Source: an uncultured Gemmatimonadales bacterium
GTDB taxonomy: Bacteria; Gemmatimonadota; Gemmatimonadetes; Gemmatimonadales; GWC2-71-9
DNA: 64,000 nt
Reading direction: 5' to 3'
Assembly (NCBI GenBank): GCA_963795085.1
Contig: CAWCFX010000002.1
Location: forward strand, 192,001-256,000
Shown here: positions 1,592-14,231 of the stretch, piece by piece
Numbering within the stretch: the stretch's first letter is position 1
Layout: each line of letters begins with the position of its first letter
The notes under the pieces: model-generated
What the model saw: only the letters and a program-made list of their open reading frames with translations
The model's database searches: none
Told to the model about the DNA's origin: nothing
Translations under genes and position numbers: made by a program

Positions 1592-1876
1592 ATGCCCGTC
1601 GTCCTCCAGCGGGATTCCGCGTTTACCCTGAGCCCGGCCGTCCGGGGACGGCAGCTGGATAACGAGCTGATCCTGCTGGACCTTGGCAAGGGGGAGTACT
1701 TCAGCCTGAACGAGAGCGGCGCCGCCGTCTGGGCCTGCCTGGAGCGCGGCATGGCTCTCGGCGCTATTGACGAAGCGATGGCCGGCTGGCCGGTGGCGCC
1801 GGATCAGCGGTGGGAGATGATCACCGCCATCGTGCTCGAGCTTCGGAGCCGGGGACTGCTGGAGCCCGCCGGGTGA
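1592..1876 (+). CDS. PqqD-family RiPP recognition element (lasso B1/E-like)
   Basis: 94 aa, 'RQLDNELILLDLGKGEYFSLNESGAAVWACL...LRSRGLL' is a typical PqqD/RRE pattern; ATG 1592 lies inside the longer 1109 ORF; stop overlaps the next GTG. Confidence 0.9.
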   Translation: MPVVLQRDSAFTLSPAVRGRQLDNELILLDLGKGEYFSLNESGAAVWACLERGMALGAIDEAMAGWPVAPDQRWEMITAIVLELRSRGLLEPAG

Positions 1877-3351
1877 CAGGGCCGGCGGCCTTGGCCGTCC
1901 TGGTTCACGATCCCCGGGTGCGGGAATTCACGCCTGCCACCCTCGCCGAGCTCCGGGTCACCGGCTGGGCGCGTCTCCCCGATGGCGATATCCGGCTCCA
2001 ATCCGATCCAGCCGCCACCCGGCCATTCTGTTACCGGATGCTTGGCCGGACCCTCCACCTCGCCTGCTATCCCGGCGACCTGGCCCGCCTTGGTCCCCCC
2101 CCCGAACTCGACTGGACCACGCTCGCGGGCCTGCCGCGGTTCCGGTTTCCGGACGATGGCGCCACGGCTTTTGCCGGTATCCACCGACTGGCCGCAGGCA
2201 CCACGACGACCATCGCGCCGGATGGCGGCACCCGTTCGCATCGCTGGTGGGAGCTGCCCCCCGAGCCGTCATCGTCCGCCAAGCCGGATCTATTCGGAGC
2301 CCTGGTGCAACAGTGCGCCGGCCAGATCCAGGGCCGGCAGTGCGCCATCCTGCTGAGCGGGGGCCTGGATTCCTCCGCCATCGCGGCCGCGGCGGTGGCA
2401 GCTGCCCGGGCAGGCGGCGGCCCCGATCCGATCCTTGCTTCGCTCGTTTATCCCGGATTGCCCTGCGACGAAGACCTTACCCAGGAGGCCATCGCACGGC
2501 ACTACGGGCTTACGCGGGTCACGGTCAACCCGGTAGGCCGCCCGGTCTGGCCCGGAGCCCTGGGCACGGTCCACTCGCGGCTGGCCCCGGTCGTGGATAC
2601 TCAGTCGGCAGCCATCGGTCAGCTCTTCGAGCAACTGGAGGCCGCCGGATGCCGGGTCGTGCTCACCGGCCTGGGTGGGGATGTCCTGTTTCGCGGCATC
2701 GGGCTGGAAGGGAGCCTGCTGCGGCAGGGCAGACTCCTGGCGATACATCGTCACTTCCGGGGAATTTCCCGGGCCCTGCCGGTCTCGGTGCCAAGGCTCT
2801 GGTGGGCCGGTGTTCTCCGGCCCCTCGCCACCGGACGCCGGGGCCCCGGGCTTTCCCGCGCGGAGGTCCTGCGGGCAGGGAGCTCGGTCCGCAGTACCCT
2901 GATCCGCAACCTCGCGGCCGGCGGTACCGGGTGGTTGACCGAAGCGGTGGAACAATCCGGTAACCATCGCCTGGCCCTGGAGAGTCCGTTCTACGGCGCC
3001 GCCTTTCTTGACCAGTACTCCCGGCTGACCCAGCAGGATTTCGCGTCGAGCGCCTCCCACAAGGGAATCCTTCGCGAGATGATCCGGCCGCACCTGCCCG
3101 CTGCGGTGGTGAACCGCGTCAGGAAGCCGAACTTTCTTGATTATCATGCCACCTGGCTCCATCGGGAGCGCAGTTCCCTCGCGGCTCGCTATCGCGAAGT
3201 GCGGCCGATGGCTCCCGCCTCCATTGACATGCCGGCGGATATTAGCCGGGCCCTCAACGCCACCAGCGGCTCGGACGGGTTCTCCAGCTCCTGGATGAGT
3301 TTGACGATGCTCGAGTTCCTGGCGGCCTGGAACTTGAGGGTCAACCCTTGA
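1873..3351 (+). CDS. Asparagine synthetase-like protein, putative lasso cyclase
   Basis: SGGLDSS PP-loop, 'VLTGLGGD', 'SPFY', 'KGILRE...LPAAVVNR.K'; no N-terminal catalytic Cys of a GATase domain; GTGA coupling to the RRE gene. Confidence 0.85.
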   Translation: MTGPAALAVLVHDPRVREFTPATLAELRVTGWARLPDGDIRLQSDPAATRPFCYRMLGRTLHLACYPGDLARLGPPPELDWTTLAGLPRFRFPDDGATAFAGIHRLAAGTTTTIAPDGGTRSHRWWELPPEPSSSAKPDLFGALVQQCAGQIQGRQCAILLSGGLDSSAIAAAAVAAARAGGGPDPILASLVYPGLPCDEDLTQEAIARHYGLTRVTVNPVGRPVWPGALGTVHSRLAPVVDTQSAAIGQLFEQLEAAGCRVVLTGLGGDVLFRGIGLEGSLLRQGRLLAIHRHFRGISRALPVSVPRLWWAGVLRPLATGRRGPGLSRAEVLRAGSSVRSTLIRNLAAGGTGWLTEAVEQSGNHRLALESPFYGAAFLDQYSRLTQQDFASSASHKGILREMIRPHLPAAVVNRVRKPNFLDYHATWLHRERSSLAARYREVRPMAPASIDMPADISRALNATSGSDGFSSSWMSLTMLEFLAAWNLRVNP

Positions 3352-3417
3352 CGCCCCGTGCCGGGACGGGCAGCTTTCATTCACCCCTGGAAAAACCGAG
3401 TACCTCAGGAGATCGCC

Positions 3418-3558
3418 ATGGATCGGGAGCGCCCCGCCACGACGGCCAGTATGCCCAGGTTCGAACCCCCCAGGCTGACTCCGCTGGGGAGTGTCACCCG
3501 GGTGACCCAGGCCTTCGAACCTGGCACCAATACCGACTTCACGATGTCGTCGTTCTAG
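3418..3558 (+). CDS. Lasso-type RiPP precursor peptide (leader MDRE...VTQ, core AFEPGTNTDFTMSSF)
   Basis: AGGAG RBS at 3407-3411; leader FEPPRLTPLGSVTRVT fits (Y/F)xxPxLxxxGxxxxxT; Thr at -2; Asp at core position 9. Confidence 0.85.
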   Translation: MDRERPATTASMPRFEPPRLTPLGSVTRVTQAFEPGTNTDFTMSSF

Positions 3559-3656
3559 GCGGAGAGCTCAGCGACCGGGCCGCACCGACTGACGCAACCT
3601 CATTCTGCCGTGCCGCCGACTGAGCCGGACGGCGCCTTCAACCAGACTCCCTCCTG

Positions 3657-4502
3657 ATGCCTCCCGGCATCATCACGCCAACTCTCGCGATCGCCGGGTG
3701 GGAACGGATAGCCCGGCATTCCAGCCTGGCCATCACGGTCCGGTCTGGAACACCTCGCGGAATTGCCGTGCCACCGGGGGTAATTAACCGGGTGGACGGC
3801 GGCTGGGCGTTCACAACCGCCGACGGGCAATGGTACCGAGTCCGGGGACCGGCGCCCGTCGCCGTGGAGGGGTACCCGCTGGAGCAGGCGACCGAACCGG
3901 AATCAGTGCTCCGCCTGTTCGGGCCGGTTACCGCCCTGGTGGCCCAGGTCAGCGGGTGCCAGCCACTTCACGCCGCGGGATTGATGCGGGGAGGGAAGGT
4001 CCTGGCTCTCTGTGCCGAGTCTGGCCAGGGCAAATCCACGCTGGCGGCACTGGCGGCGGCCCACGGATGGCAGGTCCAGGGCGATGACCTGCTCGCGGTG
4101 GACCGATCGGGTATGGTGTTGCCACTACCCGGCTCACTCCGCGTCCGTCCCGAACTGGCGCCGCCGGGATGCACCTCGGCCTGGCATCTGCCCGATGGCC
4201 GGGAATGGTATCCGCTTCCGGCGCCCGCCCATTCCGCCCAACTCGGGGGGATTGTCCGTCTCGCCAGGGGCAGGGAGATCCTGCTGCGCACGCTTCGCGG
4301 CGCCGAACGGCTGGCCACTGTCGCCGTCGCCGCCTTGGCCCCATTCTTCGGCCATGTCGAGAACGATCCGCATCCCGCCCGGCTGCTGGACCTGGCCGGG
4401 GCCACTCCAGCCTGGCATCTCACCGTGCCTGAAGGGCTGACCCGCCTGCGCGAGTCCTGGGGCATATTGGATGGCCTGCTCACCGGTCTCCTCGGCGAAT
4501 GA
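3657..4502 (+). CDS. HPr kinase-like RiPP kinase
   Basis: LHAA, P-loop AESGQGKST and GDD motifs of the HPrK family; directly after the precursor gene. Confidence 0.85.
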   Translation: MPPGIITPTLAIAGWERIARHSSLAITVRSGTPRGIAVPPGVINRVDGGWAFTTADGQWYRVRGPAPVAVEGYPLEQATEPESVLRLFGPVTALVAQVSGCQPLHAAGLMRGGKVLALCAESGQGKSTLAALAAAHGWQVQGDDLLAVDRSGMVLPLPGSLRVRPELAPPGCTSAWHLPDGREWYPLPAPAHSAQLGGIVRLARGREILLRTLRGAERLATVAVAALAPFFGHVENDPHPARLLDLAGATPAWHLTVPEGLTRLRESWGILDGLLTGLLGE

Positions 4503-6289
4503 GCACGCCGGACGCGGTCGGGCAACGCCGGCCGAGGGGACGGGACCTGGTCATGCTCGGGCTGGCGGCGGGACTTCTCACCGGGCTGGGCGAAACGGTC
4601 CTCCTGCTGGTGAAACGGTTCCTCCGGGGCCGATTCATCACGGTTGGGGAGCACGCGCTCTGGATGGCGCCGGTCGCGGACGCGCTCCTCTTCACGCTAC
4701 TCGCCATCATCTTCGTGGCGCTTACCCGCCGGGTCAGCGTCGAGCGGCGGGACCGCCTCTTTGCCACCATGCTGGTGGCCCTGGGCCTCACGGCGATGCT
4801 GACCCTGTGGGGCCGTTTCCATTGGGTCGCCACGATCCTGCTCAGCCTCGGCATCGCGGTGCGATTGAGCGGACGGATCGCTCCCCGGCTGGATGCCCTG
4901 ATGAGGGCGGGGCGGGCGGCCATGCCGGGGATGGCGGTCCTGGTCCTGCTCACGGCGGCCGGCGTCGCCGGGGAAGCCTGGTGGAAGGAGCGTAAGAGCC
5001 TCGAGGCGACCCCCGCGGGATCCCAGCCTAATGTCCTGCTGATCATCCTGGACACCGTTCGCAGCCTGAGTATGGGCCTGTACGGACATGCCCGGGACAA
5101 CACACCCGAGCTGGCTCGCTGGGCCGCCCGGGGCACCGTCTTCGATCACGCCTTCTCCTCGTCCTCCTGGACCCTTCCCTCTCATGCCGCCATGTTCACC
5201 GGCCGGTGGCAAACCGATCTCACGGTCCGATTCAACCGCCCCCTCGACAGCACCTGGCCTACCCTGGCTGAATTCCTGGGGGACCGCGGGTATGCGACGG
5301 GGGGGTTCGTGGCCAACCTGATCTACACGCCCCGGGAATCCGGCCTGGCCCGCGGGTTCGGCCACTACGAGGATTTCGGCCTCAACGTCCGGGTGTTCAT
5401 TCGCAGTGCCACCCTGCTGCGGAAGCTGGTGGACCGGCCCCGGTTCCGCTGGGCCGCCCGGCCCCGGCACCCCATGCTGTGGAAGACGGCCCGGGAAGTC
5501 TCCGGGGGAGCGCTCGACTGGATCGACCGGCAGGAGGAGGACCGGCCCTGGTTCGCCTTCCTCAACTACATGGAGGCGCATGATCCCTGGTATGTCCCGG
5601 CTCCCTTCGATACCCTCTACGGGAATGGGGCCCTTCATATCTCATGGGCGGAGATGACCGCGACGCCGCTGCCCCCGCCGGTTGCCCTGGTCCGCTTCGC
5701 CGAGGGCTACGATGCGGCCATCGCCTATCTGGATCAGGAGATCGGCAGCCTGCTTGACACGCTCGAGCGGCGCGGGCGGCTTCGCAATACGATCGTCGTG
5801 ATTACCTCGGATCACGGCGAAGAGATCGGCGAGCACCAGTTCCTGGGGCATGGCGCCAGCCTCTACCGGCCGACCGTGGAGGTCCCCCTGATCGTAATCG
5901 CGCCCGGCTGCGCAATGTCCGGAGGCCGGGCACCGGATCCGGTATCGCTCCGGGACTTCGCCGCGACCATCATGGACCTCACCGGTATGCCGGAGCATCC
6001 TTTTCCCGGGGCTTCCTTCGCGGCCCTGGCCTGTCCCGGCAACGACACCCAGGCCTATCCCCGGCCGGTCTTCTCTGTGCTTCAGGAGGCCCGGGGACGC
6101 GCCAACCCTACCCTGGTCTCGGTGGTCCAGGATTCTTTCCGGTTTATCGGGGATGGACAGGGCAGGGGGGAACTCTACAGTTTTTACGGCGATCCGCTGG
6201 AACAACACGACCTGGCCGCCCAGCCGATGCTGGGTCCTGCCTTGCTCCGGCTCCAGACCCTGGCCGACTCACTCCGAAAACCTCACTGA
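4499..6289 (+). CDS. Membrane-anchored sulfatase/alkaline-phosphatase superfamily enzyme
   Basis: About 5 N-terminal TM segments; 'PNVLLIILDTVR', 'SWTLPSHAAMFTG', 'AHDP', 'TSDHGE', 'GHG' motifs. Confidence 0.85.
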   Translation: MSTPDAVGQRRPRGRDLVMLGLAAGLLTGLGETVLLLVKRFLRGRFITVGEHALWMAPVADALLFTLLAIIFVALTRRVSVERRDRLFATMLVALGLTAMLTLWGRFHWVATILLSLGIAVRLSGRIAPRLDALMRAGRAAMPGMAVLVLLTAAGVAGEAWWKERKSLEATPAGSQPNVLLIILDTVRSLSMGLYGHARDNTPELARWAARGTVFDHAFSSSSWTLPSHAAMFTGRWQTDLTVRFNRPLDSTWPTLAEFLGDRGYATGGFVANLIYTPRESGLARGFGHYEDFGLNVRVFIRSATLLRKLVDRPRFRWAARPRHPMLWKTAREVSGGALDWIDRQEEDRPWFAFLNYMEAHDPWYVPAPFDTLYGNGALHISWAEMTATPLPPPVALVRFAEGYDAAIAYLDQEIGSLLDTLERRGRLRNTIVVITSDHGEEIGEHQFLGHGASLYRPTVEVPLIVIAPGCAMSGGRAPDPVSLRDFAATIMDLTGMPEHPFPGASFAALACPGNDTQAYPRPVFSVLQEARGRANPTLVSVVQDSFRFIGDGQGRGELYSFYGDPLEQHDLAAQPMLGPALLRLQTLADSLRKPH

Positions 6290-6777
6290 TGGAAACCATC
6301 AACCGCCGATCCGCCCAGCACATCACCCGGAGTGGATTGTTCCCGCTTCGCTGTGCCGTCCTGAACCTCCCGTACGGGCCCCTGGCGGTATTCAGCCCGT
6401 CCGAAGGCCTCAAGCGAGTATTGGTTGAGACCGCCGGCCTGCGGGACGTCGAGATCCTGGGCGACGGTACCTTCGGGCTGACTCGGGCCGGGAAGGTTCT
6501 CCTGCCTGACCCCACCCCGCTGACCGCCCTGGTCAATCTGGTCGAAGGGGACCATTGCGCCCTGGGGCGGGTCGGTGGGCAGCGACGGCTCTCGATGCTC
6601 CTTGCGGCGGGATCGACCGGCGAGCTGGAGCCGGTTGCGGGCGATCCCTGGTACGACTCGCTCCTCGACATCACGGCCTCGCTCCCGGTCTGGGAGATGG
6701 TGCTTCCGCCCGAGCGCCGGGACATGCGCGCGGCCTGGCCCGAGATCGCCATGTTGCTGGCCGAATCGGCGTCATGA
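6289..6777 (+). CDS. Degenerate HPr-kinase-like paralog (putative pseudokinase)
   Basis: Ungapped by-eye similarity to the 3657-4502 kinase at both ends with catalytic motifs altered; start/stop overlaps on both sides. Confidence 0.65.
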   Translation: METINRRSAQHITRSGLFPLRCAVLNLPYGPLAVFSPSEGLKRVLVETAGLRDVEILGDGTFGLTRAGKVLLPDPTPLTALVNLVEGDHCALGRVGGQRRLSMLLAAGSTGELEPVAGDPWYDSLLDITASLPVWEMVLPPERRDMRAAWPEIAMLLAESAS

Positions 6778-7802
6778 CGGCCGAGCCCGCGCCGCTGGCC
6801 TGGGTGATCCTCATGGCCGCGGGGCGGGAGGTGGCGGTGCCCTCCGCCGAGTCGTGGCAGACACATCTGGAATGCCTCCGCCGCAGCCGCCTGGTTCCGC
6901 TGGCCGCCCACCTGCTCCAATCCAGATTCCAGGAACTGCACCCGGACACCCGGCGCTATCTCGAGGCCGCCACGATGATGGCGGAATCAAACGTCGAGCA
7001 GGCGGCCAGCGCACTGGTGGAGATTGCCGCCCGGTTCGACCGGCGTGCCATCCGCTGGGTGGTGCTCAAGGGGTATCCGCTGGCCGCTCGGCTCTATCCG
7101 AGACCTTCCTGCCGGCCCAGTGGTGACATAGACCTGCTGGTTGACGAGCCGTCGCTGGCGGCTGCGGAGGAGGATTTAGTGGAAGCGGGGTACCGGGCGG
7201 AGGGAGCGGACCGTTCCTACCATCTCCGGCTGGTCCGGAAGGGTCAAACGGGGACCCAGGTCGTCGAGCTTCACCATCGGGCCGCGCCCGCCGCCCACGG
7301 AGGGCCCCGGACGGCAGACATTCTGGCCCACCGGCGGGCCTTCCCGATCTCCGGGTCCACCGGGTGGCTGCCTTCGGCCGGGCATGAGGTCGATCTATTG
7401 ATCCGCCACTACCTGCGGCACGCGGGCCACCAGGCCATCTGGCTGGTGGACCTCCTGCTGCTTTCGGCCGGGACCCCGCTGTGGCACCGGCTGGGATCGC
7501 CCATTGGCGATGACCTCGAGCGGGTGGGGCTACCCCGCCTGGTTGACGGGCCGGCCCGCTATTCCCTGCGCCCACTGCGCCGCTGGATGGCCCGGCGAAC
7601 TTTCGAGGAGCGGCACACGGCGCGGCACATCTCGCCGGTCGGCACGGCGCTCGCGCTGGCCGAGTCGCCCGGGGCGGCATCCCGGATGCTGGCGAGGCTG
7701 GCGTGGCCAAGCCAGCCTACCCCGCGTTGGTTCGCCACCAGTCACACCAGTTGGGGCCGCTACACCTGGCGGATCCGGCGCTTGTTCAAGCTGGGAGGCT
7801 GA
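6774..7802 (+). CDS. Nucleotidyltransferase family protein (NTP_transf_5-like)
   Basis: 'VVLKGYPLAARLYP.PSCRPSGDIDLLV' and 'VELHH' motifs; ATGA overlap with the upstream gene. Confidence 0.85.
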   Translation: MTAEPAPLAWVILMAAGREVAVPSAESWQTHLECLRRSRLVPLAAHLLQSRFQELHPDTRRYLEAATMMAESNVEQAASALVEIAARFDRRAIRWVVLKGYPLAARLYPRPSCRPSGDIDLLVDEPSLAAAEEDLVEAGYRAEGADRSYHLRLVRKGQTGTQVVELHHRAAPAAHGGPRTADILAHRRAFPISGSTGWLPSAGHEVDLLIRHYLRHAGHQAIWLVDLLLLSAGTPLWHRLGSPIGDDLERVGLPRLVDGPARYSLRPLRRWMARRTFEERHTARHISPVGTALALAESPGAASRMLARLAWPSQPTPRWFATSHTSWGRYTWRIRRLFKLGG

Positions 7803-7806
7803 TCGG

Positions 7807-9795
7807 TCAGGGCTGCGGTCCTCCGGCCGGCGCCCGTGGCCACCCGTTGTTCTCCCGCCGGACTTCGGGGAACGCCCGGTCCGGGTCGATGCGCACCGAG
7901 GTCACGCGGGTGGGACCCGGTATCGCGGCCACGTAGGTGTCGCCGTAGTACCAGATCTCGACCGGCAGCGTCACCCGGCGGCTGAATCCGTCGTCCATCA
8001 TCAGGTCCATCACCACCGGCACCGGCATCGGGCCGATCTTCCGCAGGTAGATCAGCGAGAGGGGCTGCCCGGTGCTGTCGGGCGTCCGGACCGAGTCCAC
8101 GGCGATGTCCATCGTCTCCGTCGTGTAGAAGTAACTCCGCCAGAACCAGCTCAGGTCCTCCCCTGCGCCGTCCTCGATCGTCCTGAAAAAATCCGCCGGC
8201 GTGGGGTGCCGGTACTGCCAGCGCCGGATGAACTCCTTGAACGCAGGATCGAAACGATCCGGGCCGAGGATGTAGTCCCGGAGCAGCCGAAGCCCCAGCC
8301 CGGGTTTGTTGTAGGCTACCATGCCGAGGCCGGAAGGGTCTGTCCGGTCCGCGGGGGTAGCGATGGGCTGTTCCCGGCCGCTCAGCGCGAACTGGATCTG
8401 GAGATCGGTGTTGGCCCGCCGGTTGAACCTCCCGGGATACTTCGCCTCCCAGTTGTAGTAGTTCATGAACGTGTTGAACCCCTCGTCCATCCAGGGGTAG
8501 AGTCGTTCGTTGTTCCCGACCAGCATGGGAAACCAGGTGTGCCCGAATTCGTGATCGGTGACGCTGTAGAGCGCTTCGGCCCCATCGCGGTTGCAGAAGA
8601 TGATCATGGGATATTCCATGCCGCCCTCCCGCCCGTTGATGTTGATGGCCATGGGGTAGGGGTAGGGCCACCACTGCTCCGAGTAGCGCTCGATGGCGGT
8701 CTTGCCGTACTGGGTCGCCAGGTGCCAGGTGGAGTCCGCCGAAGGCGGATACAGGCTCATCACCAGGACGTTGCCACCGTTGGCACGGGCGGCGTCCCAC
8801 ACGAAGTGAGTGGCCGCGGCCCAGGCGAAGTCGCGCACACTGTCGGCCACGAATCGCCAGGTCAGCGTCCCGGCTCGGGAGGCGGGACGGGTGGCCGGAT
8901 CCCGGACTTCGTCCTTCCCCCGAATGATCACGGTGGTGTCGCTGGCCCGGGCGGCTGCCAGCCGGGTCCGCTGGACCGGGGTCAGCACCGCTACCGGGTT
9001 CTGCAGGGTCCCGGTCGCGGCCACGATCATACTGGCCGGGACGGTGAGACTGACGTCGAACTTTCCGTACTCGAGATAGAACTCGCCATTGCCCATGTAT
9101 GGCTCGGTATTCCAGCCCCGGATATCGTCGTAGACCGCGAGCCGGGGATACCACTGGGCCACCTCGTAGATGACGTCTCCATCTACGGTGACGATCCCCA
9201 TCCGGCTGTTGATCTCTTCAAGGAAAGGGAAATACCACTCCACGTCGAACACCACCTTGCCGCCGGGCGGGAGCGGCCGGGCCAGGTCCACCCGCATCAG
9301 GGTCCCGTTGATCCGGTAGCGGAGTTCGGAGGCCCGCTGGGCCGGCCGCCCCGGGGCCGCCGCCAGCGCCGGCTGGGAGACGCCGCCAATAGTGACTCCG
9401 CCGTCGGCCCCGCCGGTGCCGAAGCGCGCGTCCGGCGGAACCACCAGGCTGCCCCGGCTGTCGGAGCGGAACAGGTTCTGGTCCAGTTGCAGCCAGAGGT
9501 ATCGGAGCGTATCGGGCGAATGGTTGCTGTAGGTGATCCGCTCCTCTCCCGTGAGGATCTTCCGGGCGGTATCGAGGGTGGCCCGAATGACGTAGTCCAC
9601 CCGCTGCTGCCAGTACTCCCGTCCCGGCGCCCCGCTCCCGGTGCGGTACCGGTTGGGGGCCGGGAGATCGAGCCGGCGGAAGGGCGAACCATCGGCCGTG
9701 GGTTCGGGCACCGGGGCGCTGGCGGTGCGCGGCTGCTGGGCCGCGAGCGGGAGAGCCAGGAAAGCCAGCAGCAGACAAGACGGGGAGGTACGCAC
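7807..9795 (-). CDS. Secreted M1 family zinc metallopeptidase
   Basis: Signal peptide, 'YWQQRVDY', GGMEYP, HEFGH...MDEG; GTG 9795 overlaps the upstream stop and follows an AGGAG. Confidence 0.9.
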   Translation of the reverse strand: MRTSPSCLLLAFLALPLAAQQPRTASAPVPEPTADGSPFRRLDLPAPNRYRTGSGAPGREYWQQRVDYVIRATLDTARKILTGEERITYSNHSPDTLRYLWLQLDQNLFRSDSRGSLVVPPDARFGTGGADGGVTIGGVSQPALAAAPGRPAQRASELRYRINGTLMRVDLARPLPPGGKVVFDVEWYFPFLEEINSRMGIVTVDGDVIYEVAQWYPRLAVYDDIRGWNTEPYMGNGEFYLEYGKFDVSLTVPASMIVAATGTLQNPVAVLTPVQRTRLAAARASDTTVIIRGKDEVRDPATRPASRAGTLTWRFVADSVRDFAWAAATHFVWDAARANGGNVLVMSLYPPSADSTWHLATQYGKTAIERYSEQWWPYPYPMAININGREGGMEYPMIIFCNRDGAEALYSVTDHEFGHTWFPMLVGNNERLYPWMDEGFNTFMNYYNWEAKYPGRFNRRANTDLQIQFALSGREQPIATPADRTDPSGLGMVAYNKPGLGLRLLRDYILGPDRFDPAFKEFIRRWQYRHPTPADFFRTIEDGAGEDLSWFWRSYFYTTETMDIAVDSVRTPDSTGQPLSLIYLRKIGPMPVPVVMDLMMDDGFSRRVTLPVEIWYYGDTYVAAIPGPTRVTSVRIDPDRAFPEVRRENNGWPRAPAGGPQP

Positions 9796-11753
9796 TACGG
9801 GGCTCCTTTCCACTCGTTGTTGGCCGGGTTCACGTCCGGCAGCATGCCATCCGCATTGACGGTGGCCGACCGGACCGGTGCCGACGTCGGCACGCTGGCG
9901 ATGTACCGGTCGCCGTTATACCAGATCTCCACCGGGAACCGGACCACCTCGGTGGATCCATCCTGCAGCACCATCGTGAGGGTCACCGGCATCACCTGCC
10001 CGCCCAGGTTGCGGAGGGTGACGCGGGCCAGGTTGCGGCCGCCCGCGGCCCGCTGGGTTACCGACTCGATCCCCTGGTCCAGTGCAGCAGTGGTAAAGAT
10101 CCATCCCCGCCAGAACCAGGACAGGTCGCGGCCGGAGACGTCCTCCATGGTTCTGATGAAATCCGCCGGGTAGGGGTGCTTGAAGGCCCAGCGGCGGATG
10201 TACTCCCGGAACGCCGCGTCGAACACGGTGGAATCGAGCACCTGGTGGCGCAGCGTGAGCAGCATCAGCGACGGCTTGATGTAGGCCAGGCTTCCGAGGT
10301 TGTTGTCGCCCCGGTACCGGTTGGCGGGCGTGATCATGGGCTGGGCGGCGGGGAGCCGGTCGTTCTGCAGGACGAACGCCAGCTCGCCCTGGCGGACCTG
10401 GGAATCATCGCGGGAGAAGTATCCCTCCTCCGCGAAGGTGTTGATGAAGGTGTTGAACCCCTCGTCCATCCAGGCGAAGCGCCGCTCATCGCTGCCCACG
10501 ATCATCGGGAACCAGTTATGTCCAATCTCGTGGGTCACGACGCTGAAGACCTCCGCCAGGCTCCCGGCATCCGATTCCATGGCGAGCATGGGGTACTCCA
10601 TGCCGGAGACCGGCCCCTCGACCGCGGAGATCTGCGGATAGGGATAGCGGAACCAGCGGGTGCTGTACTCCATGATCGAATAGCGGGACTGGCGCGCCAC
10701 GTCCGACCAGTTGGCCCGCGCCGCCGGCCGGTAGTAGGCATGGGCCAGCACCCCGTCCCAGCCGGCCGCATCCCAGAGATACTCCGGAGAGGCGGCCCAG
10801 GCCACGTCCCGGACATTGGCTGCCCGGAACTTCCAGGTGAGGGTGCCGCCGGCGCGGGGCCGTGCCGTTCCGGCGCGAAGATCCTGCTCGCGGATGATCG
10901 GCACCGCGGTATCCGATGTCCGGGCCACCGCGAGCCGGGATCGCTGGTCCGCGGTCAGGACTTCGAGCGGGTTCGCAAGCGTCCCGGTGCCGGCGACGAT
11001 GAATCCCGCGGGGAGGGTTACCTGGTAGTCAATGTCGCCGTACTCGAGGTAGAACTCGCCCTGGCCCAGGTAGGGATCGGTGCTCCAGCCCTCGACATCG
11101 TCGTACACCGCCATCCGGGGATACCACTGGGCCATTTCGTAGAGGCTGCCTTCCCGCCCCATCCGGTCAGCGCCGTGCTCGGGAATGTTGAAGTGGTAGC
11201 GAATCGCCAGCGAGGTGGCCCGCCCGGGCGCCACCGGCGTCGCGAGCGCGACCCGCATCATGGTGCCGTCCACCCAGGTGGTGACCGGCAGGCGGGCCGC
11301 CGCGGTCCGGGGCCGGTTTGCACCGCCGGTGAGCGCGGGCGTCGGTACCTGGACGATGTCTTCGATTGTGTAGCCGCCCTCGAAGCCGGCGCCGCCGAAC
11401 CGGCTGGCCGAGGCATTCAGCAGGGCGCCGGCACTCCCGGGCCGAAACAGGTTCTGGTCCAGCTGTAACCAGAGCTGCGCCAGGGTGTCCGGTGAATTGT
11501 TGGTGTAGCGGATGGTGACGGACCCGCTGAGGCGCTGGGTTGCCGTATCCAGGGTGACGGCGATCGAATAGTCGGCGCGCTGCTGCCAATACCCCGGTCC
11601 GGGAGCGCCGTTAGGCCGCCGGGCCAGGCCCGGGGCGGAAAGGGGCAGGGGACTGAAGATCCCGGTATCGGCGACCACGGACTTCGAGCTGGTCTGTTGG
11701 GCATGCACGGGGTAACCGAGCACCAGGAGCGGGAGCAGCCATAACGGGCGCAC
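9795..11753 (-). CDS. Secreted M1 family zinc metallopeptidase (tandem paralog)
   Basis: Signal peptide, 'YWQQRADY', SGMEYP, HEIGH...MDEG. Confidence 0.9.
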   Translation of the reverse strand: MRPLWLLPLLVLGYPVHAQQTSSKSVVADTGIFSPLPLSAPGLARRPNGAPGPGYWQQRADYSIAVTLDTATQRLSGSVTIRYTNNSPDTLAQLWLQLDQNLFRPGSAGALLNASASRFGGAGFEGGYTIEDIVQVPTPALTGGANRPRTAAARLPVTTWVDGTMMRVALATPVAPGRATSLAIRYHFNIPEHGADRMGREGSLYEMAQWYPRMAVYDDVEGWSTDPYLGQGEFYLEYGDIDYQVTLPAGFIVAGTGTLANPLEVLTADQRSRLAVARTSDTAVPIIREQDLRAGTARPRAGGTLTWKFRAANVRDVAWAASPEYLWDAAGWDGVLAHAYYRPAARANWSDVARQSRYSIMEYSTRWFRYPYPQISAVEGPVSGMEYPMLAMESDAGSLAEVFSVVTHEIGHNWFPMIVGSDERRFAWMDEGFNTFINTFAEEGYFSRDDSQVRQGELAFVLQNDRLPAAQPMITPANRYRGDNNLGSLAYIKPSLMLLTLRHQVLDSTVFDAAFREYIRRWAFKHPYPADFIRTMEDVSGRDLSWFWRGWIFTTAALDQGIESVTQRAAGGRNLARVTLRNLGGQVMPVTLTMVLQDGSTEVVRFPVEIWYNGDRYIASVPTSAPVRSATVNADGMLPDVNPANNEWKGAP

Positions 11754-11859
11754 GAAGAACTCCAGGCAAAGGTAGTGGCGAACCGCGAAAGGTAACCGGG
11801 AGCGGCCGGACCCCTGCTGACGGGGCCGGGAGGGTTCCGGGCTCCGGTCAGCAATAGGG

Positions 11860-11891
11860 GTCTTGACATCTAGTGTGATAACATGTAGTTT
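11860..11891 (+). promoter_or_regulatory. Sigma70 promoter of marR with overlapping putative MarR operator
   Basis: TTGACA (11863-11868), 17 bp, TAGTTT (11886-11891), 6 nt before the ATG; imperfect palindrome GTCTTGAC-N7-GTGATAAC. Confidence 0.7.
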
Positions 11892-11897
11892 CCAGCC

Positions 11898-12365
11898 ATG
11901 TCACAGGGACTCCAGGCCGAGATCAAGCAGCGGGTTCCGTTCCGGAGCGCCGGGACTGAACTGATGCTGAGCATTCTGCGCACCGCGGCGCTCCTGGAAC
12001 ACGGGTTATCCGAGGTACTCAAGCCATTCGGCCTCACGGGAACTCAGCATAACGTGCTGCGGATTCTTCGAGGAGCCGGCGCCAAGGGGCTCTGCGGCAG
12101 GGAAATAGGCGAGCGAATGATCTCCCGGGTTCCCGATGTCCCCCGCATGCTGGACCGGATGGAGGCCATGCGGCTGATCACCCGGGAGCGGGACCAGGAG
12201 GACCGCCGCCACGTCACCGCCCGTATCTCGCCGGCCGGGCTGGCCCTCCTCGAGCGAGTGGATCCCCTCCTCGAGGCGTATGAAAATGCCAGGCTGGGTG
12301 GCCTGACCGGCGCCCGGCTCAAGAGCCTGATCGACGGGTTGGCGCAGGTACGGGAGCAGCTCTGA
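11898..12365 (+). CDS. MarR family transcriptional regulator
   Basis: 'GLTGTQHNVLRIL', winged helix 'RERDQEDRRHV'. Confidence 0.92.
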   Translation: MSQGLQAEIKQRVPFRSAGTELMLSILRTAALLEHGLSEVLKPFGLTGTQHNVLRILRGAGAKGLCGREIGERMISRVPDVPRMLDRMEAMRLITRERDQEDRRHVTARISPAGLALLERVDPLLEAYENARLGGLTGARLKSLIDGLAQVREQL

Positions 12366-12384
12366 GTTTTTTGCAGGAATATAT

Positions 12385-12407
12385 GTTATCACTGTTGTTG
12401 TCATAAC
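12385..12407 (+). promoter_or_regulatory. Second putative MarR operator upstream of doxX
   Basis: GTTATCAC-N7-GTCATAAC, same half-site and spacing as the site at 11860-11882. Confidence 0.6.
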
Positions 12408-12426
12408 TTCCAAGGAGAACGTAGCC

Positions 12427-12894
12427 ATGCCGAATCGCCTGATTGCAGCCAGTACCCGGGTGGACATCGCCCTCGGGATCCTCCGGGCCGTTACCGGGGC
12501 CGTGTTCATCGCCCACGGTGCGCAGAAGCTCTTCGTATTCGGGTTCGCGGGCGTGAGCAGTGCCTTTGGCCAGATGGGGGTGCCGTTCGCCGACATCACC
12601 GGTCCGGCGGTGGCCCTGCTCGAATTTTTCGGGGGGATGGCCCTGGTCCTCGGACTGCTGGCCCGGCCGGTCGCGCTTGGTCTGGCGGCCACCATGATCG
12701 GCGCCATCGTCATGGTCCACCTGCCCAATGGGTTCTTCAACCCTGCCGGGATCGAGTTTCCTCTGGCCATGCTTGGCATGACGGTCGCTTTGGCCATTGC
12801 CGGGGCGGGAAAGTACAGCCTGGACCGCGTGGTGACCTCCCGCCGGGGCCGGTCTCCGGTGTTGCCGGTCGACGTCCTCCAGCGCGCCGCGTAA
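12427..12894 (+). CDS. DoxX family membrane protein
   Basis: 'LR...G.VFIAHGAQKL', 'EFFGG', 'GAGKYSLD'. Confidence 0.92.
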   Translation: MPNRLIAASTRVDIALGILRAVTGAVFIAHGAQKLFVFGFAGVSSAFGQMGVPFADITGPAVALLEFFGGMALVLGLLARPVALGLAATMIGAIVMVHLPNGFFNPAGIEFPLAMLGMTVALAIAGAGKYSLDRVVTSRRGRSPVLPVDVLQRAA

Positions 12895-12946: not shown

Positions 12947-13507
12947 ATGTTGAAGGTCGCCGTCGTCGTCGGAAGTACCCGCCCGAATCGCCGCGGGCTC
13001 GCGGTGGCCCAGTGGGCCCTGGAGTTCGCCAGCCGGCGGTCCGACGCGGAGTTCGAGCTGGTGGATGTCGCTGACTTCCATCTCCCGCTCCTGGACGAGC
13101 CGATGCCGGCATCCCAGGGCAATTATGCCCATGCCCACACCAGGGCCTGGTCGGCCCGGATCGCGCCGTTCGACGCGTTCATCTTCGTGACGCCGGAGTA
13201 CAACCACTCGGCGCCACCGTCCCTGACCAACGCCCTGGATTTCCTGTACCAGGAATGGCACAACAAGGCGGCGGGATTTGTCAGTTACGGGAGCAGTGCT
13301 TCGGGAGCCCGGGCGGTAGAGCACCTGCGGGGAATCATGGCGGAGCTGCAGATCGCGGACGTGCGGGGCCAGGTGGCGCTCTCGCTGTTTACCGACTGGG
13401 AGAAGTTCCAGGCCTTCACACCCGGGAGCCACCACGAGAAGGGCTTCACCGCGATGCTGGACCAGCTGGTGGCGTGGGGCGGGGCGATGAAGAAACTGAG
13501 GAATTGA
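12947..13507 (+). CDS. NAD(P)H-dependent FMN reductase
   Basis: 'VGSTRP.R', 'TPEYNHS...L.NALD', 'VSYG'; AGGAG RBS before ATG 12947. Confidence 0.92.
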   Translation: MLKVAVVVGSTRPNRRGLAVAQWALEFASRRSDAEFELVDVADFHLPLLDEPMPASQGNYAHAHTRAWSARIAPFDAFIFVTPEYNHSAPPSLTNALDFLYQEWHNKAAGFVSYGSSASGARAVEHLRGIMAELQIADVRGQVALSLFTDWEKFQAFTPGSHHEKGFTAMLDQLVAWGGAMKKLRN

Positions 13508-13672
13508 GGGAATGTTGGAATTGAGGGAATGTTGGAAATGAGGGAATGTTGGAATTGAGGGAATGTTGGAATTGAATCGTCAATTTCCCCATTCCTTCAA
13601 TTTCCACATTCCCTCAATTCCCCCATTCCCTCAATTCCCCCATTCCCTCAATTCCCCCATTCCCTCAATTTC
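13495..13672. repeat. Inverted pair of 17-bp tandem arrays between convergent genes
   Basis: About 4 copies of GAATTGAGGGAATGTTG followed by about 5 copies of TCAATTCCCCCATTCCC (near reverse complement); no spacers. Confidence 0.9.
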
Positions 13673-14231
13673 ACAGTCTGGGTCCCGTCACACCGGTCTG
13701 TTTCTGGTACTTCCCCTTCTTGTCCGCGTAACTCCTTTCGCACACGTCGTCCGCATCCGCTTCAAAGAACAGCACCTGGCAGATCCCCTCGTTGGCGTAG
13801 ATCTTCGCCGGCAGGGGGGTCGTGTTGCTGATCTCCAGGGTCACGAATCCTTCCCACTCGGGCTCGAAGGGAGTGACGTTGGTGATAATGCCGCAGCGGG
13901 CATAGGTGGATTTGCCCAGGCAGATGGTCAGGACGTTCCGGGGAATCCGGAAATATTCGATCGACCGGGCCAGGGCGAAGCTATTGGGCGGAACGATGCA
14001 CACGTCTCCCTGGAACTCGACGAAGCTCTTTTCGTCGAAGTGCTTGGGGTCCACCATGGCGGACAGGACGTTGGTGAAGATCTTGAACTCCGGCGCCACC
14101 CGCATGTCGTAGCCATAGGAGGATACCCCATAGGAGATGGCTCCCTGGCGAACCTGGCCGTCCACGAAGGGCTCGATCATGGCATGTTCGGTGGCCATGC
14201 GGCGGATCCAGCGGTCGGATTTGATGGACAT
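13671..14231 (-). CDS. dcd: dCTP deaminase
   Basis: '[11 protein letters not shown]', 'GKSTYARCG', 'PFEPEWEG', 'YANEGICQ'. Confidence 0.97.

Follow-up and report, generated by a model that had tools for sequence, protein, structure and literature searches.

A truncated, P-loop-less relative of HPrK-like peptide kinases in a lasso-peptide gene cluster of a Gemmatimonadales bacterium

The window analyzed here is a 64,000-nt stretch of DNA from an uncultured Gemmatimonadales bacterium, taken as a whole, and the subject of this report is a short open reading frame (ORF) within it, at 6289-6777 (+). This gene, called ORF162 below (its product is P0001 in the protein comparisons), belongs to a lasso-peptide gene cluster at 1592-7802 (+). 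Sequence comparisons identify its product as a true homolog of the HPrK-like kinase encoded in the same cluster, but one in which the catalytic motifs and two large segments are missing. The DNA on either side of the cluster looks like that of an ordinary chromosome, with the nuo operon, fab genes and pyrimidine genes at later positions in the window.

Organization of the lasso-peptide gene cluster

The genes of the cluster are listed below with the evidence for each assignment.

1592..1876 (+): PqqD-family RiPP recognition element (RRE; lasso B1; RiPP, peptide made by ribosomes and modified after translation), about 94 aa; Pfam PqqD E 3.3e-8, and NCBIfam lasso_PqqD_Strm E 3.6e-6, which falls short of the model's cut-off
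1810..3351 (+): asparagine-synthase-like lasso macrolactam cyclase (C protein); Pfam Asn_synthase E 4e-19
3418..3558 (+): lasso precursor peptide, 46 aa (ATG 3418) or 35 aa (ATG 3451); NCBIfam lasso_cyano (E 7.6e-5) and lasso_leader_L3 (E 2.6e-3), neither reaching its cut-off
3657..4502 (+): active-looking HPrK-like peptide kinase, 281 aa, with His, SGQGKST and GDD; NCBIfam HprK_rel_A E 1e-8 (below cut-off) and a precomputed PF27840 assignment
4499..6289 (+): membrane-anchored enzyme of the alkaline-phosphatase (AP)/sulfatase superfamily, 596 aa; Pfam Sulfatase E 8e-48
6289..6777 (+): ORF162, degenerate HPrK-like protein, 162 aa; ATG start, homology to the kinase family
6774..7802 (+): PsmN-type uncharacterised nucleotidyltransferase (NTase), 342 aa; Pfam NTP_transf_5 E 5e-37, with the GC pattern of its frame

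The last four genes overlap successively by 4, 1 and 4 nt. ORF162 begins with ATG and, as the first-pass annotation had stated, is intact and coupled to both neighbors: in TGATG it shares 1 nt with the upstream gene, and in ATGA it shares 4 nt with the NTase, which starts at 6774. GC content at codon positions 1/2/3 of ORF162 is 0.71/0.50/0.83, resembling that of the neighboring genes. Two competing reading frames were rejected on the same measure. An antisense ORF at 6144-6941 has codon-position GC of 0.62/0.66/0.74, which is not coding-like, and an upstream extension of the NTase (6555-7802) has 0.88/0.73/0.55.

The cyclase also matches NCBIfam macrolactam cyclase and lasso cyclase models below their cut-offs, and its real start may lie 3' of 1810. 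The precursor is preceded by AGGAG about 10 nt 5' of ATG 3418 and ends in ...TQAFEPGTNTDFTMSSF; the core that follows the T-Q leader end is likely AFEPGTNTDFTMSSF. The precursor end, ...TMSSF, is not the C-terminal Ser that is phosphorylated by PadeK/PsmK-type kinases according to the available text of PMC8498205. The kinase scores 34.7 bits against a TIGR cut-off of 200 bits. In the database its gene call is P0004 (GTG 3768, 244 aa), but ATG 3657, which gives 281 aa, is the likelier start because the relatives P0005 and P0006 align further upstream, over a W-x-R-I-A region. Four hydrophobic segments lie within residues 17-158 of the AP-type enzyme, near its N-terminus, and the motif that is C/S-x-P-x-R in sulfatases is T-L-P-S-H here (residue 225). 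The enzyme therefore looks more like a membrane-anchored phosphotransferase or phosphodiesterase of the AP superfamily, with an EptA/LtaS-like architecture, than a sulfatase.

Lasso B2, the leader peptidase, is the usual small gene 5' of the NTase, and the position of ORF162 suggested that it might be one. Membership in B2 was judged by the PF13471 Transglut_core3 model and its Cys-His-Asp triad. ORF162 has no Pfam match, and a hidden Markov model (HMM) derived from 13 B2 ORFs gives no match anywhere in the window at E<=10; ORF162 is rejected as a B2, and the window has no other B2. The cluster has an RRE and lacks both a B2 leader peptidase and an ATP-binding cassette (ABC) exporter. Lasso clusters without B proteins were noted earlier in the text available from PMC6993621, and that source and PMC8498205 describe, in the portions available, the kinase K and the NTase N as enzymes that act in the tailoring of phosphorylated and phospho-glycosylated lasso peptides. 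Directly after the cluster are two tandem M1-family peptidases with signal-peptide-like N-termini, at 7807-9813 (-) and 9795-11753 (-).

Homology of ORF162 to the kinase of the cluster

ORF162 had been proposed as a relative of the kinase from two ungapped hand alignments. Both are exact: 12/46 identities (ORF162 residues 19-64 versus kinase 103-148) and 10/33 (125-157 versus 243-275). Ungapped identity alone is not above chance for proteins of this Ala/Leu-rich composition, as 54 of 100 shuffled sequences reach 12/46 and 61 of 100 reach 10/33. Gapped and profile methods give a far stronger signal. BLASTP of ORF162 against the kinase returns an E value of 2e-5 over 170 collinear columns. The Smith-Waterman score is 99, compared with 35.0±5.8 for shuffles, none of 2000 of which reaches 99 (z about 11); five other window proteins score 29-43. 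In hhalign, the ORF162 family and the kinase family match with a probability of 98.3% (E 1.4e-14, 146 columns). Profile comparison and profile search agree that the homology spans ORF162 residues 15-160.

ORF162 has no match at E<=1 in NCBIfam or in a Pfam set that excluded PF27840, and its two close relatives, P0002 and P0003, have none in NCBIfam or Pfam at E<=0.01. It falls under no curated model and cannot be filed as a kinase, since it is devoid of the Walker A motif, the His, the DD pair, the N-terminal domain and a conserved loop.

Loss of the catalytic features

Statements on motifs and losses refer to an alignment of 15 sequences of the kinase and ORF162 families. Column frequencies refer to 87 kinase-like ORFs, namely 85 from 79 genome loci and two from the window. 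The positions concerned are the following.

6349..6351 (+): codon of R21, in the column that is His in 85/87 kinase-like ORFs
6400..6420 (+): S38-V44, SEGLKRV, the remnant of Walker A (SGxGKST in kinases), with only the Lys kept (Arg in P0003)
6463..6468 (+): D59-G60, in the column that is DD/DE in 85/87 kinase-like ORFs
6499..6504 (+): L71/L72 junction, the site of the absent 35-residue kinase loop PLPGSLRV...DGRxWYPLP, from the alignment
6574..6699 (+): the best-conserved part of the ORF162 family, GGQRRL (96-101) and AGDPWYDxLLDITAxLPVWEM (117-137), from the alignment

The replacements are those that the first-pass annotation had read from the DNA: Arg for His, SEGLKRV for SGQGKST, and DG for DD. 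In P0001, P0002 and P0003 the Walker A column reads SEGLKRV, SEALKAA and VEALRSA, the His column R, R and Q, and the DD column DG, DG and NG. GK[ST] is present in 86/87 kinase-like ORFs, a count that is biased because the loci were collected with a P-loop pattern. The ORF162 family also lacks about 120 N-terminal residues, although its opening residues, MET.NRR, still correspond to the beginning of P0012, a 301-aa metagenomic protein described below. The N-terminal domain and the conserved 35-residue loop are absent in all three members.

A D158A/D159A double mutant of PsmK is inactive and gives no phosphorylation, as stated in the available text of PMC6993621. With Walker A, the His, the second Asp, the N-terminal domain and the loop gone, we infer a loss of activity: ORF162 should neither bind ATP normally nor phosphorylate a substrate. 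Other positions are kept. R100, in QRRL, is conserved in 14 of the 15 aligned sequences, and R100 and A107 are nearly invariant across the kinases and ORF162. The invariant polar residues of the ORF162 family are D119, D123, D127, R99, R100, C90 and E152.

Predicted fold

AlphaFold2 (AF2), run on an alignment of three rows, gave one confident model of ORF162 (predicted local distance difference test, pLDDT, 84.4; predicted template-modelling score, pTM, 0.81). Foldseek places HPr kinase/phosphorylase (HPrK/P) structures (3tqf_B from Coxiella, 1kkm from Lactobacillus casei, and 2qmh) and phosphoenolpyruvate carboxykinases (PEPCKs) at the top of its matches, with probabilities of 0.97-1.0, template-modelling (TM) scores of 0.41-0.56 and E values of 1e-3 to 1e-2. 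The model of the window kinase (pLDDT 89) also leads to the PEPCK superfamily, and the order of strands and helices is collinear between the two models, deleted parts aside. The predicted fold is thus consistent with the HPrK fold proposed earlier for ORF162, and an unrelated fold did not emerge.

By these models, HPrK/P (1kkm, 3tqf) and the PEPCK superfamily are the best structural counterparts of ORF162. They differ from it in sequence (identity 8-11% at TM 0.4-0.56), and ORF162 has neither a match to Pfam Hpr_kinase_C nor a P-loop. The setting differs as well, HPrK/P belonging to carbon catabolite control and ORF162 to RiPP tailoring.

Relatives and phylogeny

In a word-indexed search of 5.8 billion clustered proteins, P0002 (163 aa, 65% identity) and P0003 (162 aa, 48%) were the only relatives close to ORF162 in length, and a search for longer relatives found only P0012. 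An exhaustive search of 1.84 billion representatives with a profile HMM of the three members returned 17 proteins: ORF162, the window kinase, P0003, 12 other kinase-like proteins and two giant repeat proteins. The kinase-like proteins were returned with E values down to 1e-47; the 12 are mostly 219-309 aa, with a few shorter pieces, and show GKST in every case where the sequence covers the loop. The giant proteins, P0017 (3206 aa) and P0022 (1428 aa), are of the type IX secretion system (T9SS) type and are probably repeat or composition artefacts. Their matches, 25 and 5 stretches with E values of 5e-12 and 3e-6, respectively, fall on residues 21-95 of the ORF162 profile. A scan of genome contigs with the alignment of ORF162 and P0012 gave 36 pattern matches, none of them confirmed. 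The closest ESM Atlas clusters consist of short hypothetical proteins; in one of them 28% of the members have PF27840, which is a lead only.

Phylogenetic reconstruction recovers the three proteins of 162/163 aa as monophyletic (support 100/99), with P0012 as their sister (100/99). They belong to a distinct family (100/99) together with the window kinase, its two close relatives and other metagenomic proteins. ORF162 and P0012 group with the intact kinases P0013-P0016 (91/92), apart from the clade of the window kinase (95/96). Forcing ORF162 and P0012 onto the window-kinase clade costs 17.7 log-likelihood units, yet is not rejected (approximately unbiased test, p = 0.079). The stem leading to P0012 plus ORF162 has a length of 0.49 and that leading to the ORF162 family 0.40; tip branches are 0.11-0.61 in the ORF162 family and 0.34-0.66 in active kinases.

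ORF162 is 57% identical to P0012 over the shared core and 27% identical to the window kinase, and is not a recent copy of the latter. The first-pass annotation had called it a truncated, degenerate paralog of the cluster kinase. That it is a truncated, P-loop-less homolog within the HPrK-like RiPP kinase family holds; that it is a direct duplicate does not, given this identity and its grouping with P0012. From the tree, a more likely origin is a second, different kinase gene of which ORF162 is what remains; it is a paralog of the window kinase only in the broad sense.

P0012 shares with ORF162 identical termini (METLN... and ...MLLAESAS), the loss of the His (His→Leu) and the change of DD to DG. 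It differs in being full length, with the N-terminal domain, the 35-residue loop and an intact GRGKST P-loop. These features suggest that degeneration was probably stepwise, with P0012 as an apparent intermediate.

Conservation within the ORF162 family

P0001, P0002 and P0003 (162, 163 and 162 aa) agree in length and in both deletion junctions, although they differ from one another at 32-51% of core positions. The motifs GGQRRL and AGDPWYDxLLDITAxLPVW do not vary among the three. The frame is intact, with the same architecture, in the two relatives, which are known from protein sequences alone. Pairwise core identity is 49-68% in the ORF162 family and 49-61% among three kinases of clade A. The distribution of this conservation differs. 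Identity within the ORF162 family is 58-70% over the C-terminal half and 36-66% over the N-terminal half, and in the kinases the order is reversed, with 42-59% in the C-terminal half and 59-64% in the N-terminal half, which holds the P-loop. This inverted constraint fits a protein that does not bind nucleotide and is still selected for a task of its C-terminal half. The pattern suggests that ORF162 is probably a real, selectively maintained pseudoenzyme.

Possible function of ORF162

The reading that we favor, with somewhat better than even confidence, is that ORF162 is a reduced descendant of a PF27840/ScmC-type HPrK-like RiPP kinase, retained as a pseudoenzyme that serves as a non-catalytic accessory of the tailoring module. 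It would be the non-catalytic subunit of a translationally coupled module that consists of the kinase, the membrane AP-type enzyme, ORF162 and the NTase. ORF162 may hold the precursor or phosphorylated precursor peptide, dock to the kinase or the NTase, or do both, and the phosphorylated C-terminal region of the precursor would then pass to the next enzyme. Candidate modes of action are a hetero-oligomer with the kinase, a phosphopeptide adaptor for the NTase, and a partner of the membrane AP-type enzyme; the first-pass annotation had suggested that the protein may bind the phosphopeptide, serve the NTase as a scaffold or form hetero-oligomers with the kinase. The C-terminal sheet-and-helix half, which ORF162 keeps and conserves best, corresponds to the half of HPrK/P that makes substrate and subunit contacts. 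A complex prediction for the kinase with ORF162 gave a score of 0.00 and a mark of 0.32, uninformative in either direction.

ORF162 resembles the HPrK-like RiPP kinases (PadeK, PsmK and LppK; models PF27840 ScmC, TIGR04352 HprK_rel_A, TIGR04355 HprK_rel_B and TIGR04249) in homologous sequence, in the class of its core fold and in genomic company, namely an RRE, a cyclase, a precursor and a PsmN-type NTase. Unlike ORF162, these kinases have the N-terminal domain, Walker A, the His, DD and the 35-residue loop. Non-catalytic partners are familiar in RiPP systems: the E1-like or ocin-ThiF-like partners of YcaO and the RRE proteins, for example, bind peptide or enzyme without catalysis. Their folds are unrelated to that of ORF162, and the likeness is one of concept only.

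Several observations weigh against the favored reading. Lys42 and Asp59 are kept in two of the three family members, and ORF162 may have a residual phosphate- or nucleotide-related activity. The family is rare, with three sequences and one intermediate known, and the argument for selection draws on the protein patterns of these same few. No ORF162-like or otherwise reduced, P-loop-less gene was found in the 79 kinase loci (hmmsearch with four profiles, filters off, E<=5), where the tailoring module evidently works without one. On the structural side, one of five AF2 models from the three-row alignment is confident, the others having pLDDT of 41-50, and the Foldseek E values are modest (1e-3). 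A sequence search of PDB chains found no HPrK/P for either the ORF162 family or the kinase family; the matches were a chance nucleoside diphosphate kinase (E 1.7) for the former and generic P-loops for the latter.

The leading alternative, although unlikely, is that ORF162 is an obligate partner of the kinase: ORF162 would form a hetero-oligomer with it through the retained C-terminal half, contribute, for instance, a putative trans-acting Arg100 and so tune mono- versus poly-phosphorylation. HPrK/P enzymes are oligomers whose active site uses a residue from the neighboring subunit, and the near-invariance of R100 and A107 throughout kinases and ORF162, as well as the location of both genes in one overlapping operon, agrees with such a role, whereas their 27% identity and separate clades do not. 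A neo-functionalised enzyme, a reduced fold with a new activity such as a phosphatase or a Walker-A-independent phosphotransfer, is very improbable. HPrK/P does catalyse a second reaction, phosphorolysis, and invariant polar residues cluster in the ORF162 family (those named above, D119 to E152), but phosphorolysis, like the rest of the known chemistry of the fold, depends on the P-loop that ORF162 has lost, and no enzyme family in Pfam or NCBIfam matches at E<=1. Next after the kinase partner, and likewise unlikely, is an adaptor or activator of the NTase, in which a remnant of the phosphate site (K42, R66, R99/R100) would recognise the phosphorylated C-terminal region of the precursor and present it to the NTase. 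The ATGA shared by the ORF162 stop and the NTase start is in keeping with this, as is the slot directly 5' of the NTase, which ORF162 fills in the window and which is usually filled by another small protein, with B2 found in 13 of the 26 upstream ORFs that were scanned. Fusions of B2 and NTase are reported in the available text of PMC8498205, and that of PMC13381572 describes a heterologous host in which an NTase of this family showed no activity, its authors speculating on a missing partner. Against an NTase adaptor, the NTase homologs present in 34 of the 79 kinase loci are never accompanied by an ORF162-like gene, and PsmN works in Escherichia coli without such a partner according to the accessible part of PMC6993621.

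That ORF162 is instead a decaying remnant, once a full-length second kinase but since inactivated and shortened through deletions, leaving an ORF that does nothing whether or not it is translated, is fairly improbable. In favor of decay, none of the catalytic features is left and two large segments are absent, the two stems (0.49 and 0.40) are long, and the family is extremely rare, with 3 members among 5.8 billion clustered proteins and no counterpart in the 79 loci. A decaying gene would not readily explain why three lineages that differ at a third to a half of their core keep the same length, junctions and open frame, why conservation is patchy in a protein-like manner, with the two invariant motifs, why tip branches are no longer than those of active kinases, or why the high GC of third codon positions and the start/stop overlaps are preserved. 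The favored interpretation of a maintained accessory can be carried one step further, to a conversion of kinase into reader: ORF162 would be a phosphopeptide reader that hands the phosphorylated precursor to the PsmN-type NTase or the AP-type enzyme, and pairs of kinase and pseudokinase would be a recurrent, overlooked design of pathways to phosphorylated lasso peptides (compare the Novosphingobium case below). This extension is speculative and, on the sequences at hand, doubtful; if it were true, ORF162 would be a missing partner of the sort already speculated on for these NTases.

In lasso peptides and related RiPPs, HPrK-like kinases and PsmN-type NTases recur as tailoring enzymes and are poorly understood, and a conserved dead kinase derivative encoded between them would be a natural handle on the hand-off of the phosphopeptide. 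The literature searched, with mutational data on paeninodin outside its scope, describes HPrK-like kinases and NTases from lasso clusters and related ones, but no truncated or dead HPrK-type partner and no example of an HPrK-derived non-catalytic RiPP partner; a search for ScmC returned only unrelated acronyms. If the favored reading is right, ORF162 would be the first reported HPrK-fold pseudoenzyme in RiPP biosynthesis. The series from the intact kinase through P0012 (P-loop kept, His and Asp lost) to ORF162 (P-loop, loop and N-terminal domain lost) would be a compact case of a pseudoenzyme evolving step by step. The rarity of the family, at three sequences, limits the weight of this case; ORF162 is of interest to RiPP enzymologists.

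Other kinase loci and second copies

The 79 loci came from a genome scan with the kinase alignment and are all distant (24-50% identity). Beyond the 87 kinase-like ORFs, hmmsearch gave only ABC-transporter P-loops and noise. B2 peptidases occur in 44 of the loci and two kinase-like ORFs in 6; a homolog of the AP-type enzyme occurs in 0/79.

Both copies keep the His, the P-loop and DD in five of the six two-copy loci. The sixth is L048, from Novosphingobium beihaiensis (NZ_JALHLG010000011.1), whose second HPrK-like gene, at 13120-14118 (+), has His→Gln, DD→DG and an intact GVGKS loop. It resembles ORF162 in being probably non-catalytic, in standing beside an intact kinase in a lasso cluster and in its losses at the His and DD columns. 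It differs in its full length (a 333-aa ORF), its retained P-loop and its neighbors, which are two sulfotransferases and a cyclase, with no NTase beside it. Since it is placed elsewhere in the tree, the two losses have an independent origin there.

The metal-binding pair is DE instead of DD in 19 of the 87 kinase-like ORFs, from 19 loci, mostly of sphingomonads (for example L008, L012-L015, L024, L026 and L037-L039). At L072, the segment at 9716-12433 (+) is a tandem duplicate of kinase and PqqD in which the motif regions are identical and both PqqD copies have identical phmmer E values.

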